Assembly: GCA_963422375.2 (NCBI GenBank)
Contig: OY729427.2
Location: 864,001 to 928,000, forward strand
Direction: 5' to 3'
Source: Bryobacterales bacterium
GTDB taxonomy: Bacteria > Acidobacteriota > Terriglobia > Bryobacterales > UBA6623
Length of the DNA: 64,000 nucleotides
Part shown: piece after piece, positions 49,377-59,915 of the stretch
How the letters are laid out: every line of letters begins with the position of its first letter
How positions within the stretch are numbered: the stretch's first letter is position 1
Program-made: the position numbers and the translations under genes
Notes under the pieces: model-generated
Told to the model about the DNA's origin: nothing
The model's database searches: none
Seen by the model: only the letters and a program-made list of their open reading frames with translations

Positions 49377-50327
49377 ATGCCAGACCACCGACCTGGCGGC
49401 GCCGCGCCGCGCCGCGCGCCGGGCGGGGTGACCCTCTCGCGCCTCGCACTCGCCGCGGCGCTCGGCCTGCTCGGCGGCGCCTGCTCCGTCAAGAAGTTCG
49501 CGGTGCGGCAGGTGGCCGACGCCCTTGCGTCGGACGGGTCGGTCTACGAGAGGGATTCCGACATCGAACTCGTCGGCGGGGCCCTGCCGTTCAGCCTCAA
49601 GCTGGTCGAGAGCCTGCTCGACGTCACCCCGCGCCACCGGGGCCTGCTGGTCACGGCCGCCAAGGGATTCGCGCTGTACGCGCTCGCGTACGTCGACACG
49701 CCCGGGGAGATCCTGATCGAGGAAGACTTCGAGCGGGGCCGCGAGCTCCGGGTTCGCGCCAAGCGCCTCTACCTGCGTTCCCTCGCCTTCAGCACCGACG
49801 CGCTCGAGAGGGCCTATCCGGGCATCGAGGACCAGTTGCGGAGCAGCCCTCGCGAGGCGGCCGCCCGCGTGAAGAGGAAGGACATCGACCTGCTGTACTG
49901 GGCCGGCGCGGCCTTGGGGCTTTCGATCTCGGCGGACACCACCGACCCGCGCATGCTGCTGCGCCTGGGCGAGGTAGAGGCGCTGCTGGATCGCGCCATG
50001 GAACTGGACGAGGGCTGGGACCGGGGCACGCTGCACGAGTTCCGCCTGAAGCTGGAAGCGGCCCGGCCCGGCGGCGCCAGGCCCGACGTGATCGAGAGCA
50101 GCTTCCGCCGGGCGGCTGAGCTGTCGGACGGGCAGCGCGCGAGCCTGTACGTGGATTACGCAGTAGCCGCCGCCATCCCGTCCCAGAACCGGGAACTGTT
50201 CGGCAAGATGCTGGACCGGGCGCTGGCGATCGACGCGGATGAGTTCGAGCAGTACCGCCTGCTCAACCTGCTCGCCCAACGACGGGCCGTCTGGCTGCGC
50301 TCCCGCACCGACGATCTCTTTTTCTAG
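49377..50327 (+). CDS. TRAP transporter TatT component (TPR lipoprotein)
   Basis: Lipobox LGGAC; D.ELVGGALPFSLKLVESLL, RAKRLY, terminal DDLFF; precedes a DctP gene. Confidence 0.85.
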   Translation: MPDHRPGGAAPRRAPGGVTLSRLALAAALGLLGGACSVKKFAVRQVADALASDGSVYERDSDIELVGGALPFSLKLVESLLDVTPRHRGLLVTAAKGFALYALAYVDTPGEILIEEDFERGRELRVRAKRLYLRSLAFSTDALERAYPGIEDQLRSSPREAAARVKRKDIDLLYWAGAALGLSISADTTDPRMLLRLGEVEALLDRAMELDEGWDRGTLHEFRLKLEAARPGGARPDVIESSFRRAAELSDGQRASLYVDYAVAAAIPSQNRELFGKMLDRALAIDADEFEQYRLLNLLAQRRAVWLRSRTDDLFF

Positions 50328-50428
50328 CGCTGCCGCGCGCGCGGGCGCGACGCATATACTGAAGCTGGAAGTCCCGAACGGGCGCGACGCGGGACAGTCC
50401 GGCGGCCGCGAACGGAGCGAGTGTCGAC

Positions 50429-51451
50429 ATGAGCAGCCTTCGCGTCGCAGTAGCGGCGGCACTCGCGACCGTGCTCGCGGTCGCTGTGGCGGTCGAGACG
50501 GCCCCCGCGCAGCGCCGGCGCGCGAACCGGATCAAGCTGGGGACGGTCGCGCCCAAGAACAGCGTCTACCACGAGGTGCTCCTTCGCATGCGCCAGTCCT
50601 GGCGGGCGATCTCGAACGGAGCCGTCGACCTGCTGATCTACCCGGGCGGAGTGGCCGGCGACGAGATCACCATGCTGCGCAAGATACGCGCGGGCCAGAT
50701 GCAGGGCGCCCTGATCTCCGGCAGCGGGATGTCCTTCCTCGACGACGGCATTAGCGCCCTGCAGGTGCCCTTGATGTACGACTCGCTGGAAGAGTTCGAT
50801 TTCGTGCTCTCCAAGATGGCCCCCGCCTTGGAGCGGCGCCTGCACGGCAAGGGCTACACGGTGGTCGGCTGGGGCGACGCCGGCTGGGCGCGCTTCTTCG
50901 CGGTCGAGCCGTTCCAAACGCCGTCCGACCTGCGCCGGATGAAGCTCTACACGTCGAAGGGCAGCGACGAGATGCTGCACCTGTTCTCGGAGTTCGACCT
51001 GCGCGCGGTGCCGCTCGACCTGACCGAGCTGCAGGCCAATCTCGAGACCGGGCTGGTGGACGTATTCGCCGTGCCGCCCCTAGTCGCCGCCGGCTACCAG
51101 TGGTTCGCGTCAGCGCCGAACATGCTCGATCTCCGGTTCCTGCCTATCATCGGCGCGGTGCTGATCGACAACGAGTCCTGGGAGGCGATTCCCGAGGCGC
51201 AGCGGGATCTGATGCGGGAAGCGGCGGGCGAGGCGACCGACCAGATCCAGATCGCGGTGCGCGACCAGGAAGCGACGGCCATCCAGGAAATGCGGAAGTA
51301 CGGCCTCAACGTGATCGAGCTGGACGAGGCCACCTTGGCGGAGTGGCGGCGGGAAGTCGGCGAGGCGTATCCGCGCCTCCGCGGGCGCTACGCGCCCGCG
51401 GAGGTCATGGACGAAGCCATGGCCTGGAGAGACAGCTTCCGGGCGCGCTAG
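50429..51451 (+). CDS. dctP: TRAP substrate-binding protein DctP/TatP
   Basis: IKLGTVAP, YPGGVAGDE, KIRAGQ, LETGLVD. Confidence 0.88.
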   Translation: MSSLRVAVAAALATVLAVAVAVETAPAQRRRANRIKLGTVAPKNSVYHEVLLRMRQSWRAISNGAVDLLIYPGGVAGDEITMLRKIRAGQMQGALISGSGMSFLDDGISALQVPLMYDSLEEFDFVLSKMAPALERRLHGKGYTVVGWGDAGWARFFAVEPFQTPSDLRRMKLYTSKGSDEMLHLFSEFDLRAVPLDLTELQANLETGLVDVFAVPPLVAAGYQWFASAPNMLDLRFLPIIGAVLIDNESWEAIPEAQRDLMREAAGEATDQIQIAVRDQEATAIQEMRKYGLNVIELDEATLAEWRREVGEAYPRLRGRYAPAEVMDEAMAWRDSFRAR

Positions 51452-52586: not shown

Positions 52587-55500
52587 CTAGAACTCCAGCC
52601 TGAGCGAGAGCTGGGACACGCGGCCGCCCGTGCCGCGGAGCGTGCTGGAGACCCTGCCGAATCCGCCGCGCCCCCGCCGCTCCTCGGGATTGGCGAACTG
52701 CGGATGGTTGGGGAGGTTGAAGAAATCGGCTCGGAACTGGACGCGCAACCGCTCGCTGAAATCGAACCACTTATGCACCGAGAAGTCGATGTTCGCGAGC
52801 CCCGGCCCGCAGCACAGCGAACTCGGGCTGCTGCCGAATACGCCCGTGCCCGGCGCCTCGAACAGGGCAGTGTCGAAGAACGTGTCGCCCTTGACGTTGC
52901 CGCGCCAGCCCGCCTTCTGGACCGGGTCGCCCAGGATGTTGGGACGCTGGCTCGCCGCGTAAGTGTTGCTGCGATTGGTGTTCTCGATGATGACGAAGGG
53001 CGAGCCGGTGCGGAACTCGCTGATGACGCCGATCCCCCATCCGCCGGCAATGGCGTCAAGCAGGCCTCCGCTGATGTCGAACTTGCGCCCCTTGCCGAAC
53101 GGCAGCTCGTACACCGAGCTGAGCGCCACCCGGTGCCGGATGTCGCTCCCGGAATACCCCCGGTCGAGATGGCGCAGTTCCTTGTGCTGCTCGCGGTTGC
53201 CCACGAACTCAGACAGCTCCGAGCCGGCCTCGACGTCGTCGAGGTACTTGGACCACGTGTAGTTCATGAGCAGGTTAAAACCGCCCGAGTAGCGCTTCTC
53301 GAGCTTCAGGTTCCCGGAGTGGTACACCGAGTTGCCCCAGTCCACGGACCGCTGGACCACGCCGTTGAATGTCGGGAACGGTCGCAGCTGCTGGGATTGC
53401 TTATCCGGCCCGCGTCCGTTGACGAGCGGAATCTGATTCCAGTTCGTATTGGCGCCGCCCAGCCGATGGCCCACGTTCGCGATGTAGGCCACCTCGACGA
53501 GGTAGTTGTTCGGGAGCTGCTGCTGGATGCCGAAGTTCCATTGCTGGGCCATCGCGCTGCGGTGTCCCTGGCGGAAGAACTGGGGCGAGATCTTGGGACG
53601 CTCTCCGAAGCGAACCGAGCCGAATCCGGGCCCGAGGTCCGCCGCCGCCGTGGCCGGCATGCCTTGGGACAGGGAGAACGCACGGGTGATTCCACCGTCC
53701 GGGGAAGTGAAGTTGCCCTGCGTGCTGAATCCCAGGGAGAACGCGTTCGGCACGGCGCCCCGGTACGCCCCGTAGTAGTTGATGCCGTACCCTCCGCGCA
53801 CGACCGTGGCATCGGTGATCCGATAGGCGAGGCCGAAGCGCGGGCCGAGGGCTCCGTAGTAGGTGTCGTGCGAGTACTTGCCGAGACCGTCCCGTCCGAA
53901 GAACGTCACCGTTCCCGGCAGGCCGGAAACCGGATTGGTCGCATGCCAGTCGAAGCCGTTCAGGCGGTTGTTGCGGTCCCACAGGGGCGTGTCCACCTCG
54001 TAGCGGAGACCCAGGTTCAGGGTCAGCTTCGAGGCGACTCGCCAGTCGTCCTGGACGAAGACGCCGAAGTAGTCCGTCCTGCGGTCCAGTATCTCGGCAT
54101 CGTTGATGTCCCCCGAGCTGACGTGCCCGAGGAGCAGCTCGGCCGTGCCGACCCCGGTGGCGCGGTTCCCGAACACGAACTGGCCGCCGGTGCGGTTGTT
54201 CTGGTCGTCGATGTTCCGCGAGTAGCGCCAGTTGAATCCGTACTTGATCTGGTGGGAGCCGCGAATCAGCGTCTGGTTCTGGTTGACCTCGATGGTCCTG
54301 ATCGGAGTCTGGAGCCGCTCCTGGTTCGCGGGAACCAGCGGCGTCAGCCCGTTGACGTTGATTCGGGCGAACGATTCCGGGTTGACCCCTCCGATACCGT
54401 ACTCGCCGTTCTTGCCGGAGTTGCGGGCCGCAGAGCGGTTGATGTGGAGCCGGTCGCCCCAATTGAAGCGAAACTCGTTGATCATCGTCGGCGAGAAGTT
54501 GTGAATCCAGTTAACCGTCGTGTTGTGGTGACGATTCTTCCGAATTCCCGCACGCGGGTCGGCGAAGTCGTGCGGGTAGACCCCCGGGATGTTCTGCGGA
54601 GCCGTCACGTGCATGAACCTGACCGAGACGCGATCCGCCTCGGACACGTTGTGGTCCCACTTGGCGGTGTAGTAGTTCTGGTCCAAGCCGTTCGACGCGT
54701 TGTTGACGTAGTTGTTGGCCGGCTTCGACGCGACGTCCCCGGGCACGTTCGGATCCGGGTACAGCTGGATAAGTTGAGCGGCGATCGGATCGATTCTGCT
54801 TGGCGGAATGACGTTGTTGGGAAACACGCCGCCCGTCGGATCCTTCAGCGACAGCCCGGCGCGCTGGGAGAAATCCCCCGACTTCTCGATGACGTGGGGA
54901 ACATCGTCCCCGGAGTAGGTGACGCCGTCGCGCCGTCGCGCTCCCTCGTAATTGAAGAAGAAAAACGACTTGTTCTTCCTGACCGGCCCGCCCAGCGAGC
55001 CGCCGAAGATGTTGTAGCGCAGCGGCGCCGTCTCCTTGGCGAAGAAGGACCGGGCGTCCATCGCGTTGTTGCGGAAGAACTCGTACACGGCCCCGTGGAA
55101 GTCGTTGGTTCCGCCACGCGTCGTCATCAGGATGAAGCCGCCCCCGGCTCGGCCGAACTCGGCGGAGTAGTTGTTCACTTCTGCCTTGAACTCCTGCAGG
55201 GACTCGGCGGGCGGGTTCAGCCCCAGCTGCTGCGTCCCGATGGCCATGTTCTGGACCACTGAGCCGTCAAGCGTCCACATCTGATTCTGGGAGCGCCCGC
55301 CCGCCATCGAGAACTTCGGGATCTGCTCGCCGCCGTCCTCGGAGCGGAACGAGATATTCCCGAGGAGCCGGACCAGCGAGGCGCTGCGCCGGCTGATCAC
55401 CGGCATGTTGAACACCGTCTCCCGTTCGATGAACTGGCCGACCGAGGACGTAGCCGCTTCGAGCTGCGGCGTCGTAGCCTCGACGGTGATCACCTCGGTG

Positions 55501-55853
55501 AGCTCTCCGATCTCCATCTGGACGTTCACCGTGCGCGTGGTTCCCGTCTCGAGCGCGACCCCGGTTTGGTTCGAGGTCTTGAACCCGTCGACCTCCGCCT
55601 GCAGCGTGTACACGCCCGGCGCTACGTACGGGAACACGTACACCCCGGACTCGTTGCTCTCGGCGGTCGTCGCCACACCCGTGTCGACGTTGCTCAACGT
55701 CATCCTGGCGCCCGGGATGGCTGCGCCGGTCGTGTCGGTCACCGATCCGCCGAGGCGACTCTGGTCCTGAGACCAAGCGGAGATCCCCGCCAATCCGAGA
55801 GCGCAGGCGACAATGCCGAGGCGCCTCGCCGCAACTAGGTATCTGTGTGCCAT
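52587..55853 (-). CDS. TonB-dependent receptor with N-terminal carboxypeptidase-regulatory-like domain
   Basis: GSVTDTTGAAIPGA, EFKAEVNNYSAEFGR, GTNDFHG, QDDWRV..KLTLNLGLRYE, terminal LRLEF. Confidence 0.93.
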   Translation of the reverse strand: MAHRYLVAARRLGIVACALGLAGISAWSQDQSRLGGSVTDTTGAAIPGARMTLSNVDTGVATTAESNESGVYVFPYVAPGVYTLQAEVDGFKTSNQTGVALETGTTRTVNVQMEIGELTEVITVEATTPQLEAATSSVGQFIERETVFNMPVISRRSASLVRLLGNISFRSEDGGEQIPKFSMAGGRSQNQMWTLDGSVVQNMAIGTQQLGLNPPAESLQEFKAEVNNYSAEFGRAGGGFILMTTRGGTNDFHGAVYEFFRNNAMDARSFFAKETAPLRYNIFGGSLGGPVRKNKSFFFFNYEGARRRDGVTYSGDDVPHVIEKSGDFSQRAGLSLKDPTGGVFPNNVIPPSRIDPIAAQLIQLYPDPNVPGDVASKPANNYVNNASNGLDQNYYTAKWDHNVSEADRVSVRFMHVTAPQNIPGVYPHDFADPRAGIRKNRHHNTTVNWIHNFSPTMINEFRFNWGDRLHINRSAARNSGKNGEYGIGGVNPESFARINVNGLTPLVPANQERLQTPIRTIEVNQNQTLIRGSHQIKYGFNWRYSRNIDDQNNRTGGQFVFGNRATGVGTAELLLGHVSSGDINDAEILDRRTDYFGVFVQDDWRVASKLTLNLGLRYEVDTPLWDRNNRLNGFDWHATNPVSGLPGTVTFFGRDGLGKYSHDTYYGALGPRFGLAYRITDATVVRGGYGINYYGAYRGAVPNAFSLGFSTQGNFTSPDGGITRAFSLSQGMPATAAADLGPGFGSVRFGERPKISPQFFRQGHRSAMAQQWNFGIQQQLPNNYLVEVAYIANVGHRLGGANTNWNQIPLVNGRGPDKQSQQLRPFPTFNGVVQRSVDWGNSVYHSGNLKLEKRYSGGFNLLMNYTWSKYLDDVEAGSELSEFVGNREQHKELRHLDRGYSGSDIRHRVALSSVYELPFGKGRKFDISGGLLDAIAGGWGIGVISEFRTGSPFVIIENTNRSNTYAASQRPNILGDPVQKAGWRGNVKGDTFFDTALFEAPGTGVFGSSPSSLCCGPGLANIDFSVHKWFDFSERLRVQFRADFFNLPNHPQFANPEERRGRGGFGRVSSTLRGTGGRVSQLSLRLEF

Positions 55854-56181
55854 GTAATGCCCTTCCACGAATCGCGATTGCCGGGCAACCCCTCGCCCGG
55901 GAAACGCGCAACTTACATTCTAGACGACTCGTAACGCCTGAAGCCTTCCCGCGGGAACGCTCCGCCATGCGCCGCTCGGCCGACGGCTTCAGGCAGACCT
56001 GAGCGGCACCGTCAATCCCAGCATCCAGCCGCCCCGGCGCTCGCGGCGGAACGCCCGGACCGCCGCAAGCGGCCAAGGGACGCGCCGACCCGCGGCCTGC
56101 GGGCATCCACCCGAGCCGACCGAGACCGCTCCGCGGGCGGCGGGCAGCCCGGCGCAGCGCGGGACCGAGACCGAGAGGCCC

Positions 56182-59100
56182 TCAGGAATCCAAGGTGAAC
56201 CTCTCGGGATGCATCGAGGAGTCGCCCCGCACCAGAATGTTGGCGCCGACGGTCGCCTCCAAGTCCTCGAGGTGCGAGTTGCCCTTGCTCTTGAGGGACT
56301 TCGCGACCTCGGGATGGACCCGTAGTGTCAACTCTCGCGAGTCCCCGCCGCCCGGACTGTTCCGGCGCGCGGCGATGCGGTCCGCCGCGGAGAAGATCTC
56401 CGACAGCACGGTGGCCGACGACTTCACGCTGCCGGCGCCGCTGCAGGCCGGGCAGGGGATGCACAGGGCCCGCTCCAGGGACTGCCTCATCGCCTTCCGC
56501 GTGATGACCACCAGCCCGAAGTCGTTGAACGGCAGCAGCCTGCTCGGGGAACTCATCTTCTTCAGCGCTTCCTGGAGCACTTGATGCACGCTCTGGCGGT
56601 TCTTGCGGTCTTCCATGTCAATGAAGTCGATCACGATGATCCCGCCGAGGTCGCGCAGCCGCACCTGCCGCACGATCTCTTCGGCGGCCTCGAGGTTCGT
56701 CTTCAGCACCGTGTCCTCGAGCCTGTTGGACTTGCCGACGTACTTGCCCGTGTTCACGTCGATCGCGACCAGCGCCTCGGTCTGATTGATCACGATGTAC
56801 CCGCCGGACGGCAGCCGGACCTTGGGATTGAGCGCGTCCTCTAGGCTCTTGGAGATCCCGAACTGGTCGTACATGGGCTGCGGGCGGGTATAGAGCTTGA
56901 CACGCCCCGCCATCTCGGGCTGGAATCGATGCGCGAATCGCATGATGCGCTCGAACTCGTCCTCGGAGTCGACCCACACGGTCTTGTAGCTCTGGCCGAG
57001 GTTGTCCCGGAGCACGCGCTCGACGATGCCGAGGTCGCTGTGCAGCTTGGCTGGGGCCCTGCGCTTCGAGGCCTTCCCCTGGAGATCCTCCCAGAGCTTC
57101 TGCAGGAATTTCAGGTCGGCCACCAGGTCCTGCTCGCTGACGTTGCGGGCGGCGCTGCGGACCACGAACCCTCCGGGCTTGCCGTCGGAATGCGCGTCGA
57201 CAATCTTTCGTAGGCGGATCCGCTCCGACTCGGGCTGGATCTTGCGAGAGACGCCGTGGTGCTTGGCGGTGGTCATGTAGACCATGTAGCGCCCGGGCAG
57301 CGAGACGTGCGCGGTGACCCGCGCGCCCTTGGCCCCGACGGGCTCCTTGTTGACCTGGACGATCACCTCCTGCCCGCTCTTGAGCAGGTCGTCGATGTTG
57401 GCTTGGGGGCCCGGTTGCTTGTCCCGCTGCGGGGCGCCGGCGCGCCGGCCTCCCAAGCTCCGGGTGCCCGTCTTGCGCCGTCCTTCTTGGGGGCGCTTCG
57501 GGTGGGCCGCCTTCGCGTCGACCTTCGCCTTCTTGACGGGCGCTTCCCTCGGCAGCCCGGGTATGGGCCGCACGTCCGCCCGGGGGCTCGTCTTCCGGCG
57601 CGCCCCGCCCTTGGGTGCATCCGCCGGCCGTCGCGGCTCGCGGGCGGTCGGCGGCTCCGGCCGCGGAGCGCTCTCGCTGCCTCGCCCTACCTTGCTCTTC
57701 AGCCAGTTGACCAGATCGATCCGCAGCTCGGCGACCGCCGAGGGCGCCTCGACGGAGGCGCTGCGCCTAGGAGGTTCCGGAGACGCCGCGAGGGAGTCGC
57801 CGGAATCGGGACCCTCGGACGGATCCGGCGCGGCGGCCGGCTCGCTCGCCGGAATCGCTCCAGCTCCCTCGTCCCGCACCGCTGCAGGCCCAGAGGCGCC
57901 GTCTGCCGTTCCGGCTGCGGGCGTGTCGCTCTCGCCCGCCGGACCTTCCGAGGCGCCCGCCGGCTCCGGAACGCCGTCCCCGCGTTCGCCTGCCGGCTTG
58001 CTCGCGCCGTACCTCGCGATCGACTCGCCCGGCAGGACCTGGCCTGCTAACTCTTCCGCGACCGCTTTGGACGCGCCGTCGTCGGTCCGGCCGACCGCCT
58101 CGCCAGCCGCCGGCGCCTCGGCACCGCCCGTCTGGTGGGGCGACTCGTCGCGAGCAGGTCCGGCTGCCGCGACGTCCCCGGCCGCAGCGGCTTCGGATTC
58201 CCGCGGCTCCGCCGCGACGCGGGCATCGGCCCGGTAGCGGGCGGCACGCTCCCGGAGGCCTTCCCAGGGCCCTCGCAAGAAGGCGATTCTCGAGCGGATC
58301 GACTCTAGGTCGGCCACCAGCTCCTCCTCGCCGATTCCGCGAGCTCCGGACAGCGCTTCGAAGCCGCCGACCACGCCTTGGGCGTGGCTGTCGACGATCT
58401 TCTTGAGCCGCTTCCGCTCCGATTCGCGCTGAATCCTGCGCGAGCAGCTGTTCTTCTTCGCGGACGCTCGGTAGAGGAGATAGCGGGCCCCCAGCCTCAA
58501 GTCGGCCAGGGCGGGATCCTGCGCCCCGGGGGCGGGACCGGACCCGGCCGGAGCCTCGCCCTCTTCCCCTGCTCCAGCGGCGGAGTATGGCACGGCGGCT
58601 TCCGTCCCGCCCTCGGGCCCGTAGCGCGCTGCGTGCTGCTGAAACTCCTCGCAGAGGCCGCGCAGGAATTCCATCTCGGAAACAAGGTCCCCCTCGGCCA
58701 CGCCCGCGGCGGAGTTCAGCACCTCGAAGCCCCCGTCCTTGCCGCCCGCGTGGAGATCGACCAGTCTCTTCAGTCGCTTCCGCTCCGCCGTGGGCTGAAT
58801 GGACTTGGTGACTCCGTTGAAGGAAGCGTTCGTTCGGTAGGTCGCGAAGCGGCCGACCACGATGAGATTGGCGGACACCACACCCGGCCCGGAATCGTCC
58901 GACGCGCCGTGGGAGGCGGGAGCGTCGGCTTGCTCGCCCGCTCTCCCTCGAGCGGTGTCCGCAGGCGCGACGCGACCGAGATCGTCGGTCGGGCTCCGCT
59001 TGGGGTGGGCGTCGGCTGGAGCCGCGGCTTCTTCGGCGGCGGCCACAGCTCCCGGGCGGTCGCGGCTGTGGTCCTGGCCGGGGGCCGCGTCGCGATACTT

Positions 59101-59625
59101 GGCGATCGACTCGCCCGGGATCACGTCGAAGCGCCCGTCATCGTCGCCGTCCGCCTCGGAGGGCTCCGGGTCGTCCGCGCCGAACCCCTCGCGCCCGGCC
59201 GCGTCGGCCGGGCGTCGCCGCCGCCGACGACCGCGGGCCTGGCCGGGAAGATCGTCCGCGCCGCGGGCCGCTTCCTCCGCCTGCCGCTCGTCCTCGCCCG
59301 GCTCGGACGGCTCGTCGGCGCTCGCGGCCACTTGGAGGGACTGGGCCAGTTCCGCCTCGATGGGACCGGCGTCCAGGTCGCCGTCGTCCCCGGCGGCGGG
59401 GTCGAGCACGTCCGTCACGTACAGGAACGCGTCGCGTGCCAGCCCTAGGTTGACGAACGCGGACTGCATTCCCGGCAGGACGCGCGTCACGCGGCCCTTG
59501 AAGATGCTTCCGACGAGAGCCCTCCGCTCTCTGTGCTCTACGCAGATCTCGACGAGGCGATCATCCTGCAAGATCGCCACAGTCGTCTCGATCGGATTCG
59601 ATGAGATGACCAGTTCTTGGGACAT
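56182..59625 (-). CDS. rne: Rne/Rng family ribonuclease with a very large insertion in the S1 domain
   Basis: VGSIFKGRVTRVLPGMQSAFV, VQVNKEP..KGAR, TEALVAIDVNTG, TNLEAA, LRDLGGIIVIDFIDM, CPAC Zn link. Confidence 0.93.
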   Translation of the reverse strand: MSQELVISSNPIETTVAILQDDRLVEICVEHRERRALVGSIFKGRVTRVLPGMQSAFVNLGLARDAFLYVTDVLDPAAGDDGDLDAGPIEAELAQSLQVAASADEPSEPGEDERQAEEAARGADDLPGQARGRRRRRRPADAAGREGFGADDPEPSEADGDDDGRFDVIPGESIAKYRDAAPGQDHSRDRPGAVAAAEEAAAPADAHPKRSPTDDLGRVAPADTARGRAGEQADAPASHGASDDSGPGVVSANLIVVGRFATYRTNASFNGVTKSIQPTAERKRLKRLVDLHAGGKDGGFEVLNSAAGVAEGDLVSEMEFLRGLCEEFQQHAARYGPEGGTEAAVPYSAAGAGEEGEAPAGSGPAPGAQDPALADLRLGARYLLYRASAKKNSCSRRIQRESERKRLKKIVDSHAQGVVGGFEALSGARGIGEEELVADLESIRSRIAFLRGPWEGLRERAARYRADARVAAEPRESEAAAAGDVAAAGPARDESPHQTGGAEAPAAGEAVGRTDDGASKAVAEELAGQVLPGESIARYGASKPAGERGDGVPEPAGASEGPAGESDTPAAGTADGASGPAAVRDEGAGAIPASEPAAAPDPSEGPDSGDSLAASPEPPRRSASVEAPSAVAELRIDLVNWLKSKVGRGSESAPRPEPPTAREPRRPADAPKGGARRKTSPRADVRPIPGLPREAPVKKAKVDAKAAHPKRPQEGRRKTGTRSLGGRRAGAPQRDKQPGPQANIDDLLKSGQEVIVQVNKEPVGAKGARVTAHVSLPGRYMVYMTTAKHHGVSRKIQPESERIRLRKIVDAHSDGKPGGFVVRSAARNVSEQDLVADLKFLQKLWEDLQGKASKRRAPAKLHSDLGIVERVLRDNLGQSYKTVWVDSEDEFERIMRFAHRFQPEMAGRVKLYTRPQPMYDQFGISKSLEDALNPKVRLPSGGYIVINQTEALVAIDVNTGKYVGKSNRLEDTVLKTNLEAAEEIVRQVRLRDLGGIIVIDFIDMEDRKNRQSVHQVLQEALKKMSSPSRLLPFNDFGLVVITRKAMRQSLERALCIPCPACSGAGSVKSSATVLSEIFSAADRIAARRNSPGGGDSRELTLRVHPEVAKSLKSKGNSHLEDLEATVGANILVRGDSSMHPERFTLDS

Positions 59626-59915
59626 GGGATTGTCCGGGGAAGCTCGGCTCCGTGCCGTGCGCCGCTTCGAATGTCGTCGGGAATCTACAGTTCATGCTCC
59701 TCCCATTCGGACGAACCGGCTTGACTGCTGCCTCGCGACCGTTCGGGGCCGGCCCGGAAGCGCCGTGTTTCCCGGCAGCGAGCGGAGCGCCTAGCGGGGC
59801 TGGCACGCTCGAGCAGGCCGGGGCGCAACCGGAGACCGGGCCCTCGGGTCGAGTACTTCCTTGCTACCCTTTCTTTCTTGGAGCCAGCGACGCTGCCTGC
59901 ACCGGCGATTGAAGT

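Follow-up and report, generated by a model that had tools for sequence, protein, structure and literature searches.

Why would a ribonuclease of the RNase E/G family carry three copies of its 5'-sensor subdomain, and what could the two additional copies do? This question is raised by a minus-strand gene in a 64,000-nucleotide stretch of a Bryobacterales genome (contig OY729427.2, positions 864,001 to 928,000; hereafter the window, in whose numbering all coordinates are given). An earlier note, made from the sequence alone, had reported two degenerate extra copies of the sensor there. The catalytic half of RNase E is highly conserved, and an insert in its S1 domain is the only notable deviation described in the available text of PMC4245959.

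The gene (56182..59625, minus strand) is a single open frame of 1147 aa and the final gene of an mreC-mreD-mrdA-rodA-rne run, in which mrdA and rodA were identified by Pfam. The two genes upstream that we take to be mreC and mreD were named from their translations. Elsewhere in the window, two adjacent ORFs (49377-51451, plus strand) presumably encode a TRAP-T transporter lipoprotein and a periplasmic binding protein; they are followed by what we take to be a sugar-phosphate isomerase-like ORF and then a TonB-dependent receptor-like ORF (52587-55868, minus strand). The gene at 56182-59625 is the only sensor-bearing gene that we found in this genome. Its whole product matched PF10150 with 348.7 bits (cut-off 25.5), in three stretches, and TIGR00757 with 506.2 bits (cut-off 325.95), which places it in the Rne/Rng family. 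The NCBIfam equivalog models scored below their cut-offs for both RNase G (NF008689, 499.6 against 594) and RNase E (NF008074, 253.3 against 908).

The N-terminal RNase H-like segment and the first half of S1 (aa 1-74, 59404..59625, minus strand) align without gaps to four congeners. S1 is then split by a largely low-complexity insert of about 668 aa (57400..59403, minus strand), compared with 251-406 aa across 34 relatives. A canonical 5' sensor of the R169/T170 type (aa 771-855, 57061..57315, minus strand) stands intact between the S1 and RNase H-like parts, with R823/S824 at the positions of E. coli R169/T170; Ser occupies position 170 in 5 of 121 ordinary sensors. The remaining catalytic core and the small domain (56182..57060, minus strand) follow, and the C-terminal scaffold is absent. 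Counted along the alignment with 2vrt_A, catalytic D956 and D1000 correspond to E. coli D303 and D346, and the Zn-link residues C1058/C1061 to C404/C407. Position R373 of the E. coli enzyme, an RNA contact in the available literature, aligns to Pro in this protein. Because the working sensor is intact, activation by 5'-monophosphate through the canonical copy should be normal.

Both extra copies lie within the S1 insert, in the same open frame and on the same strand as the canonical sensor. Copy 1 (aa 251-335, 58621..58875, minus strand) and copy 2 (aa 373-464, 58234..58509, minus strand) are separated in the translation by a 37-aa linker rich in Gly, Ala and Pro (58510..58620, minus strand). 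Over 84 columns, copy 1 is 43% and copy 2 is 49% identical to the canonical sensor, and the two extras are 48% identical to each other. The repeat unit spans approximately E. coli residues 117 to 201; the boundaries of the E. coli sensor are given as 119-214 in the available text of PMC4245959. The alignment places a 7-residue insertion in the long helix of copy 2 (58282-58302, minus strand); as this amounts to two turns, the helical register would be kept. A profile built from the 121 ordinary sensors only scored the extras at 53 and 52 bits (E ~1e-17 in a five-protein search). GC content at codon position 2 was 0.44-0.50 in the extras, like the folded core (0.41), against 0.60-0.76 in the spacers of the insert, where position 1 reached 0.80-0.89.

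AlphaFold2 modeled copy 1 with a pLDDT of 92 from a 45-row alignment, with residues 128-130 and 165-168 on strands. The best fold match of this model was 4oxp (Z 12.4, rmsd 2.9, 92 aligned residues), followed by RNase W and RNase E and then by RnpA (Z 7.4-7.8). Copy 1 thus models as a sensor fold in a prediction that is led by its alignment, and this alignment-based prediction covers copy 1 only. Single-sequence AlphaFold2 of aa 248-860 gave a pLDDT of 41, with the canonical copy likewise unfolded. A phmmer search of the extras against PDB sequences did not find RNase E at E<=1; at lead level, the ESM Atlas returned three RNase E/G clusters at 0.84-0.87. The two in-frame extra copies claimed by the earlier note were therefore borne out by the single frame, the three PF10150 stretches and the 43-49% identity, and their identity as 5'-sensor subdomains by the profile homology and the match of copy 1 to 4oxp. 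The same note had proposed AlphaFold as a check for three sensor folds, and this check stands for copy 1 and for that copy only.

We considered whether the extras could be an assembly artefact or chimera, as the earlier note had cautioned. The occurrence of the architecture in one genome only would fit an artefact, as would the fact that none of the listed contig pieces spans the whole gene. Against this, DNA identity between the copies is only about 69-71% where BLAST aligns them, and contig pieces from other studies that cover the extras are nearly identical to the window. Ten of the 18 listed runs, from 7 studies, contain the stretch in whole or in part; all sampled words were recovered in four runs covering three samples of one study, and a fraction of 0.93 in a second study. 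No RNA data set is among the listed runs that contain it, which does not bear on expression. Contigs were compared for four runs, one from each of four other studies (X5-X8). In X5, from the second study, one contig covers 56100-58449 with 0 differences, so that the canonical copy and the greater part of copy 2 stand on one piece, and further pieces cover 58608-58758 and 58763-59700. X6, from the third study, covers 58297-58558 with 1 difference and 58557-58825 with 0, and X7, from the fourth, covers 58785-59003 with 0 differences; the listed pieces of X8 leave the extras uncovered. With extra-copy DNA present in contigs of three other studies at 0-1 differences, an assembly artefact is largely refuted and has a vanishingly small probability.

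The architecture is apparently unique among the sequences searched. Within the genus, 29 of 30 other genomes were matched, with a single ordinary sensor per genome, carried in a frame of 758-874 aa; in two of the 29, a second weak match lay in an unrelated frame, and the unmatched genome is 87% complete. In a sensor-profile survey of the phylum, 354 of 401 genomes were matched, and three matches were found in this genome only (G070, G095 and G198, with one match each, were counted in this survey only). Where phylum genomes had two matches, these fell at separate loci in 81 of the 81 re-searched (the tallies imply 82). About 82 of 400 phylum genomes thus have two separate RNase E/G genes, and the 47 of 401 genomes with no profile match cluster in few families (0 of 3 matched in f14 and in f29, for example).

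Beyond the phylum, a search of 1.84 billion representatives gave 8538 profile matches, and this protein headed the best 150 at 285 bits; single-sensor proteins among those 150 peak at 125 bits. Such a search misses multi-sensor proteins whose sensors sum to less than 113 bits or that stand behind one-sensor representatives. Among 8000 candidates sharing words with the protein, 7768 were matched, with the runner-up at 131 bits against 288. For relatives of the extras themselves, the 11 other proteins of 630-2008 aa that matched, at 42-46% across 36-38% of the query, all did so through one ordinary sensor, and none was found among 6449 shorter candidates; elsewhere, candidate relatives of the extras matched at 31-40% at a minimum of four metagenome and two genome loci. 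The survey of Rne proteins for multiple sensors that had been proposed turned up three others with two real sensor stretches among the best 150 of the 8538 matches, all tandem fragments; a fourth protein's second stretch was spurious. As in the present protein, sensor stretches are repeated within one frame in these three (P0013, P0014 and P0015), with two in each, arranged as a tandem repeat of the C-terminal half of S1 and the sensor, but their copies are 79-90% identical with Arg and Thr intact. They are one-member clusters from other phyla on contigs of 1.1-2.4 kb, and probably reflect chimeric assembly or duplication in the very recent past.

Multiple sensors in an RNase E/G were likewise undescribed in the portion of the open PubMed Central and bioRxiv literature that was searched, in agreement with the earlier statement that no such RNase E was known; no second such protein was found among the sequences searched. 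It had also been stated that absence of the extras from close relatives, or lack of constraint there, would refute the claim. The absence was in part found, in that the extras turned up in no relative searched, the nearest of which have canonical sensors 79-80% identical to the gene's own canonical copy; the extras are constrained, as set out below.

What distinguishes the extras from ordinary sensors is the face that forms the phosphate pocket. The residues named as pocket residues are G124, V128, R141, R142, R169 and T170 (bioRxiv 2023.01.13.523895), together with M130 and I139 (PMC8522691), and substitutions R169K and T170V abolish 5'-monophosphate discrimination in E. coli (PMC6202311), each according to the available text of the source. 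In E. coli numbering, copy 1 carries V128T, M130R, I167E, R169L, T170N and W191C, and copy 2 carries G124A, V128L, M130R, I167E and R169L. At G124, V128, M130, R141, R142 and T170, copy 1 reads G, T, R, K, S and N and copy 2 reads A, L, R, R, R and S. The earlier observations that Arg is replaced by Leu in both extras and kept in the canonical copy, and that both gain a Glu two residues before it, were correct: L303/N304 and L425/S426 stand against R823/S824, and E301 and E423 fall at the position of I167. Position 169 is Arg, and position 167 is Ile or Val, in 121 of 121 ordinary sensors. A third shared change, M130R (R264 and R386), had gone unremarked and occurs in none of the 121.

Outside the pocket the extras are better preserved. 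Among non-pocket columns conserved in at least 85% of the 121 sensors, each extra keeps 10 of 14, compared with 1 of 6 pocket columns in copy 1 and 2 of 6 in copy 2 (counting Ser, as in the gene's own canonical copy; Fisher p 0.05 and 0.16, respectively). Helix 1 and its loops are kept best, with 15 of 25 residues in copy 1 and 17 of 25 in copy 2 identical to the canonical sensor. The two helix-1 Arg residues that all 121 sensors share are retained in both extras, which add a Lys there, and their net charges are +1 (copy 1) and +6 (copy 2). Across columns, family conservation does not track identity between the extras (rho -0.05), as expected if the pocket has been lost. With R169L, I167E and M130R, the extras are very likely blind to the 5'-monophosphate end while keeping a basic first helix. 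By strand alternation, positions 130 and 167 would lie side by side and could form a salt bridge; most likely, the new Arg130 and Glu167 pair and seal the pocket.

The extras are under purifying selection (omega about 0.1-0.3 against a background of 0.06). Codon tests on 84 codons with synonymous sites near saturation rejected omega=1 for the extras in a branch model of 10 sequences (2ΔlnL 33); with the tips alone, omega was 0.18 (2ΔlnL 18). A clock model gave 0.24 for the extras against a background of 0.06 (2ΔlnL 16), and pairwise estimates under three frequency models gave best values of 0.1-0.3 (2ΔlnL 12-23). Under each of two neutral models, none of 100 simulations reached the observed statistic. 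Neutral drift to 48% protein identity would leave third-position identity at 76-77% (minimum 67%), against the 49% seen, and the profile scores of the extras exceeded those of 300 of 300 neutral-decay copies of equal identity in all four settings. The dN/dS analysis that the earlier note had suggested thus points to constraint in branch, clock and pairwise models alike. In an unconstrained model, the omega of the extras was indistinguishable from background (p 0.51); a test of position 2 against position 3 was marginal (p 0.044), NG86 gave about 0.5, and in a test for a burst of positive selection, stem omegas of 0.3 to 3 fitted about equally. W191, which all 121 ordinary sensors share, is missing from copy 1, and 14-16 residues of each extra have no precedent among the ordinary sensors; these losses and novelties indicate that decay is under way or that the constraint is loose.

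The extras come out as sisters in a tree built from 38 sensors (support 99/96, with a long-branch warning) and weakly join their own canonical copy (88/62), with branches of 0.47 + 0.9 and 0.67 against 0.13. When each extra was placed without its partner (21 of the 38 rows), it fell within the clade of the genus (100/100), grouping with the canonical copy in a branching order that the tree does not resolve. Four residues are common to both extras and found in 0 of 121 ordinary sensors, which indicates a single ancestor. We suggest that the 5' sensor of an ordinary, intact RNase E/G would have been duplicated within the genus into the tolerant S1 insert, that its pocket face was then rebuilt (R169L, I167E, M130R), and that the rebuilt copy was duplicated again; the order of duplication, pocket change and second duplication is the one we infer. 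The linker between the extras was no more similar to the flanks of the canonical copy than shuffled sequences, and of six comparisons for remnants of duplicated flanks, one outscored most of its shuffles (10 of 300 came up to it) and five did not.

A PGES motif occurs twice in the insert, upstream of the extras (aa 168-177, 59095..59124, minus strand) and downstream of them (aa 530-539, 58009..58038, minus strand). It is present in one copy at 33 of 35 related loci (L002-L036) and absent at 2; among long homologues, 142 of 169 have one copy and 10 of 169 have two or more. Since these ten homologues are also doubled, the second motif lends weak support to the possibility that the extras arose by one large tandem duplication. 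The motif is conserved within an S1 insert that is otherwise unalignable, and looks like a putative, undescribed partner-binding microdomain of acidobacterial RNase E. At least 13 congeners also share a short hydrophobic, Trp-containing and possibly amphipathic segment of the insert (about 57690-57740, minus strand, aa 630-646), which could be a membrane anchor or a docking helix.

What keeps two such modules in an essential enzyme? Readings in which the extras bind protein, as docking sites or decoys, were ranked first, since the described ligands of the sensor outside its pocket are proteins. RebA, described as cyanobacterial, interacts in two-hybrid tests with the sensor subregion on its own and acts as an inhibitor of Anabaena RNase E, with a Kd of 10.3 nM (bioRxiv 2023.03.20.533394); Caulobacter RhlB binds a fragment of S1 and sensor (PMC4245959), both according to the available text. 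We tentatively regard the extras as putative tethered docking modules, with sealed pockets, for sensor-binding proteins, either partners or inhibitors, and consider this quite possible. The extras would then be two folded modules on a flexible tether that do not sense 5'-monophosphate; most likely, their retained basic helix-1 face would bind a protein that also binds the ordinary sensor, and they would serve as additional places for a decay partner (a helicase, for example) to dock, or as a sink for an inhibitor. Conservation of helix 1 could also reflect folding alone. This genome and four congeners have similar sets of RNA-decay genes, with RnpA, RNase J and an RraA-like protein in 5 of 5 and RNase Y above cut-off in 0 of 5, which gives no hint of a special partner. 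More specifically, the extras might be built-in decoys with dead pockets that capture an inhibitor, of host or phage origin, directed against the 5' sensor and so keep the essential nuclease active. We consider this quite unlikely; if true, it would be an integrated decoy in a bacterial housekeeping enzyme and a bait for unknown RNase E inhibitors.

The constraint might instead be that of passenger domains, in which selection keeps folding only and the exposed sheet face has turned polar with no function: half-unfolded copies would be harmful inside an essential protein, and for that reason the folding core would be preserved. A kept core with a lost functional pocket fits this reading, as do an omega about four times background, restriction to a single lineage, the free variation in insert length (251 to 406 aa) and the missing W191 of copy 1. 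Yet an insert that tolerates indels makes clean deletion easy, and both copies persisted until third-position identity had fallen to 49%; moreover, the second duplication was retained, both copies share the same three novel pocket residues though 44 of 84 columns differ, and the helix-1 surface charges are kept in both. We therefore consider mere passengers rather unlikely. It is also unlikely, in our estimate, that the extras are RNA tethers blind to the 5' end, with a basic helix-1 face that would hold the RNA backbone, either concentrating substrate locally or supplying direct-entry cleavage, in place of the RNA-binding sites found in the E. coli C-terminal half. The conserved Arg pair and added Lys of helix 1 would suit such a role, as would the net charge of copy 2 with its retained R141, the resemblance of the fold to RNase P protein and the missing C-terminal scaffold, but copy 1 is at +1 and has lost R141/R142, the degraded face is the known RNA-contacting face, a Z below 8 may reflect a common arrangement, and Arg-rich tracts are already present in the insert.

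The earlier note had suggested that the sensors were repurposed for other RNA ends or caps, and of its options this is the least supported, given that the pocket now has an acidic residue and lacks its Arg. Such a re-tuned pocket, with its Arg moved from 169 to 130 and working with E167, would read 5'-OH, triphosphate, NAD or another cap, or a small ligand. Three never-seen residues at or beside the pocket, shared and kept by both copies, speak for it; the acidic residue disfavours phosphates, and the copies differ at 124 (G/A), 128 (T/L), 141 (K/R), 142 (S/R) and 170 (N/S), which argues against one shared ligand, so that we judge it improbable. Autoinhibition, in which one of the extras would occupy S1 or the core in competition with RNA or the genuine sensor, appears highly improbable. 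The Caulobacter S1 insert protrudes into the RNA-binding cleft in the available text of PMC4245959, so elements borne on an insert can reach it, but the segment that joins sensor to S1 is changed in both extras (the Pro is lost and its neighbours are never seen in ordinary sensors), and about 175 and 280 residues separate the extras from the two S1 halves.

The extras amount to a natural experiment in which the phosphate pocket of the sensor is uncoupled from its remaining surfaces, and any binder of these copies should point to a second function of the ordinary sensor. The 5' sensor has here been excised almost at its structural borders and kept twice under selection with its pocket rewritten, which suggests that it can fold alone. 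The reach of this is lowered by its confinement, among the genomes searched, to one species-level lineage of uncultured Bryobacterales-like Acidobacteriota. Near homologues of the protein carry the names Bryobacteraceae or Bryobacterales, so that its host probably belongs to this acidobacterial order.

Several known systems resemble parts of this protein. It shares the core, the intact sensor, the catalytic Asp residues, the Zn-link and the small domain with RNase E/G proteins (PF10150/TIGR00757), including the N-terminal half of the E. coli enzyme (2vrt), but has two further sensor copies and no C-terminal scaffold. RnpA, a stand-alone RNA-binding domain, may have a fold similar to the copy 1 model (Z 7.4-7.8, rmsd 3.3-3.4 over 78-79 residues) at 13-15% identity, and the genome has its own rnpA. 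In the RebA-RNase E pair of Anabaena and the RhlB-RNase E pair of Caulobacter, the sensor, or S1 and sensor together, serves as a protein-binding surface; as far as the available texts go, spare sensors are undescribed in either system, and each partner binds a single working sensor. Caulobacter crescentus RNase E (4OXP) and plant chloroplast enzymes carry a charged insert, prone to disorder, at the corresponding site of S1 (PMC4245959, available text); inserts described there are about 50-150 aa long and have no duplicated domain, whereas the present one extends to 668 aa and holds two predicted sensor folds.
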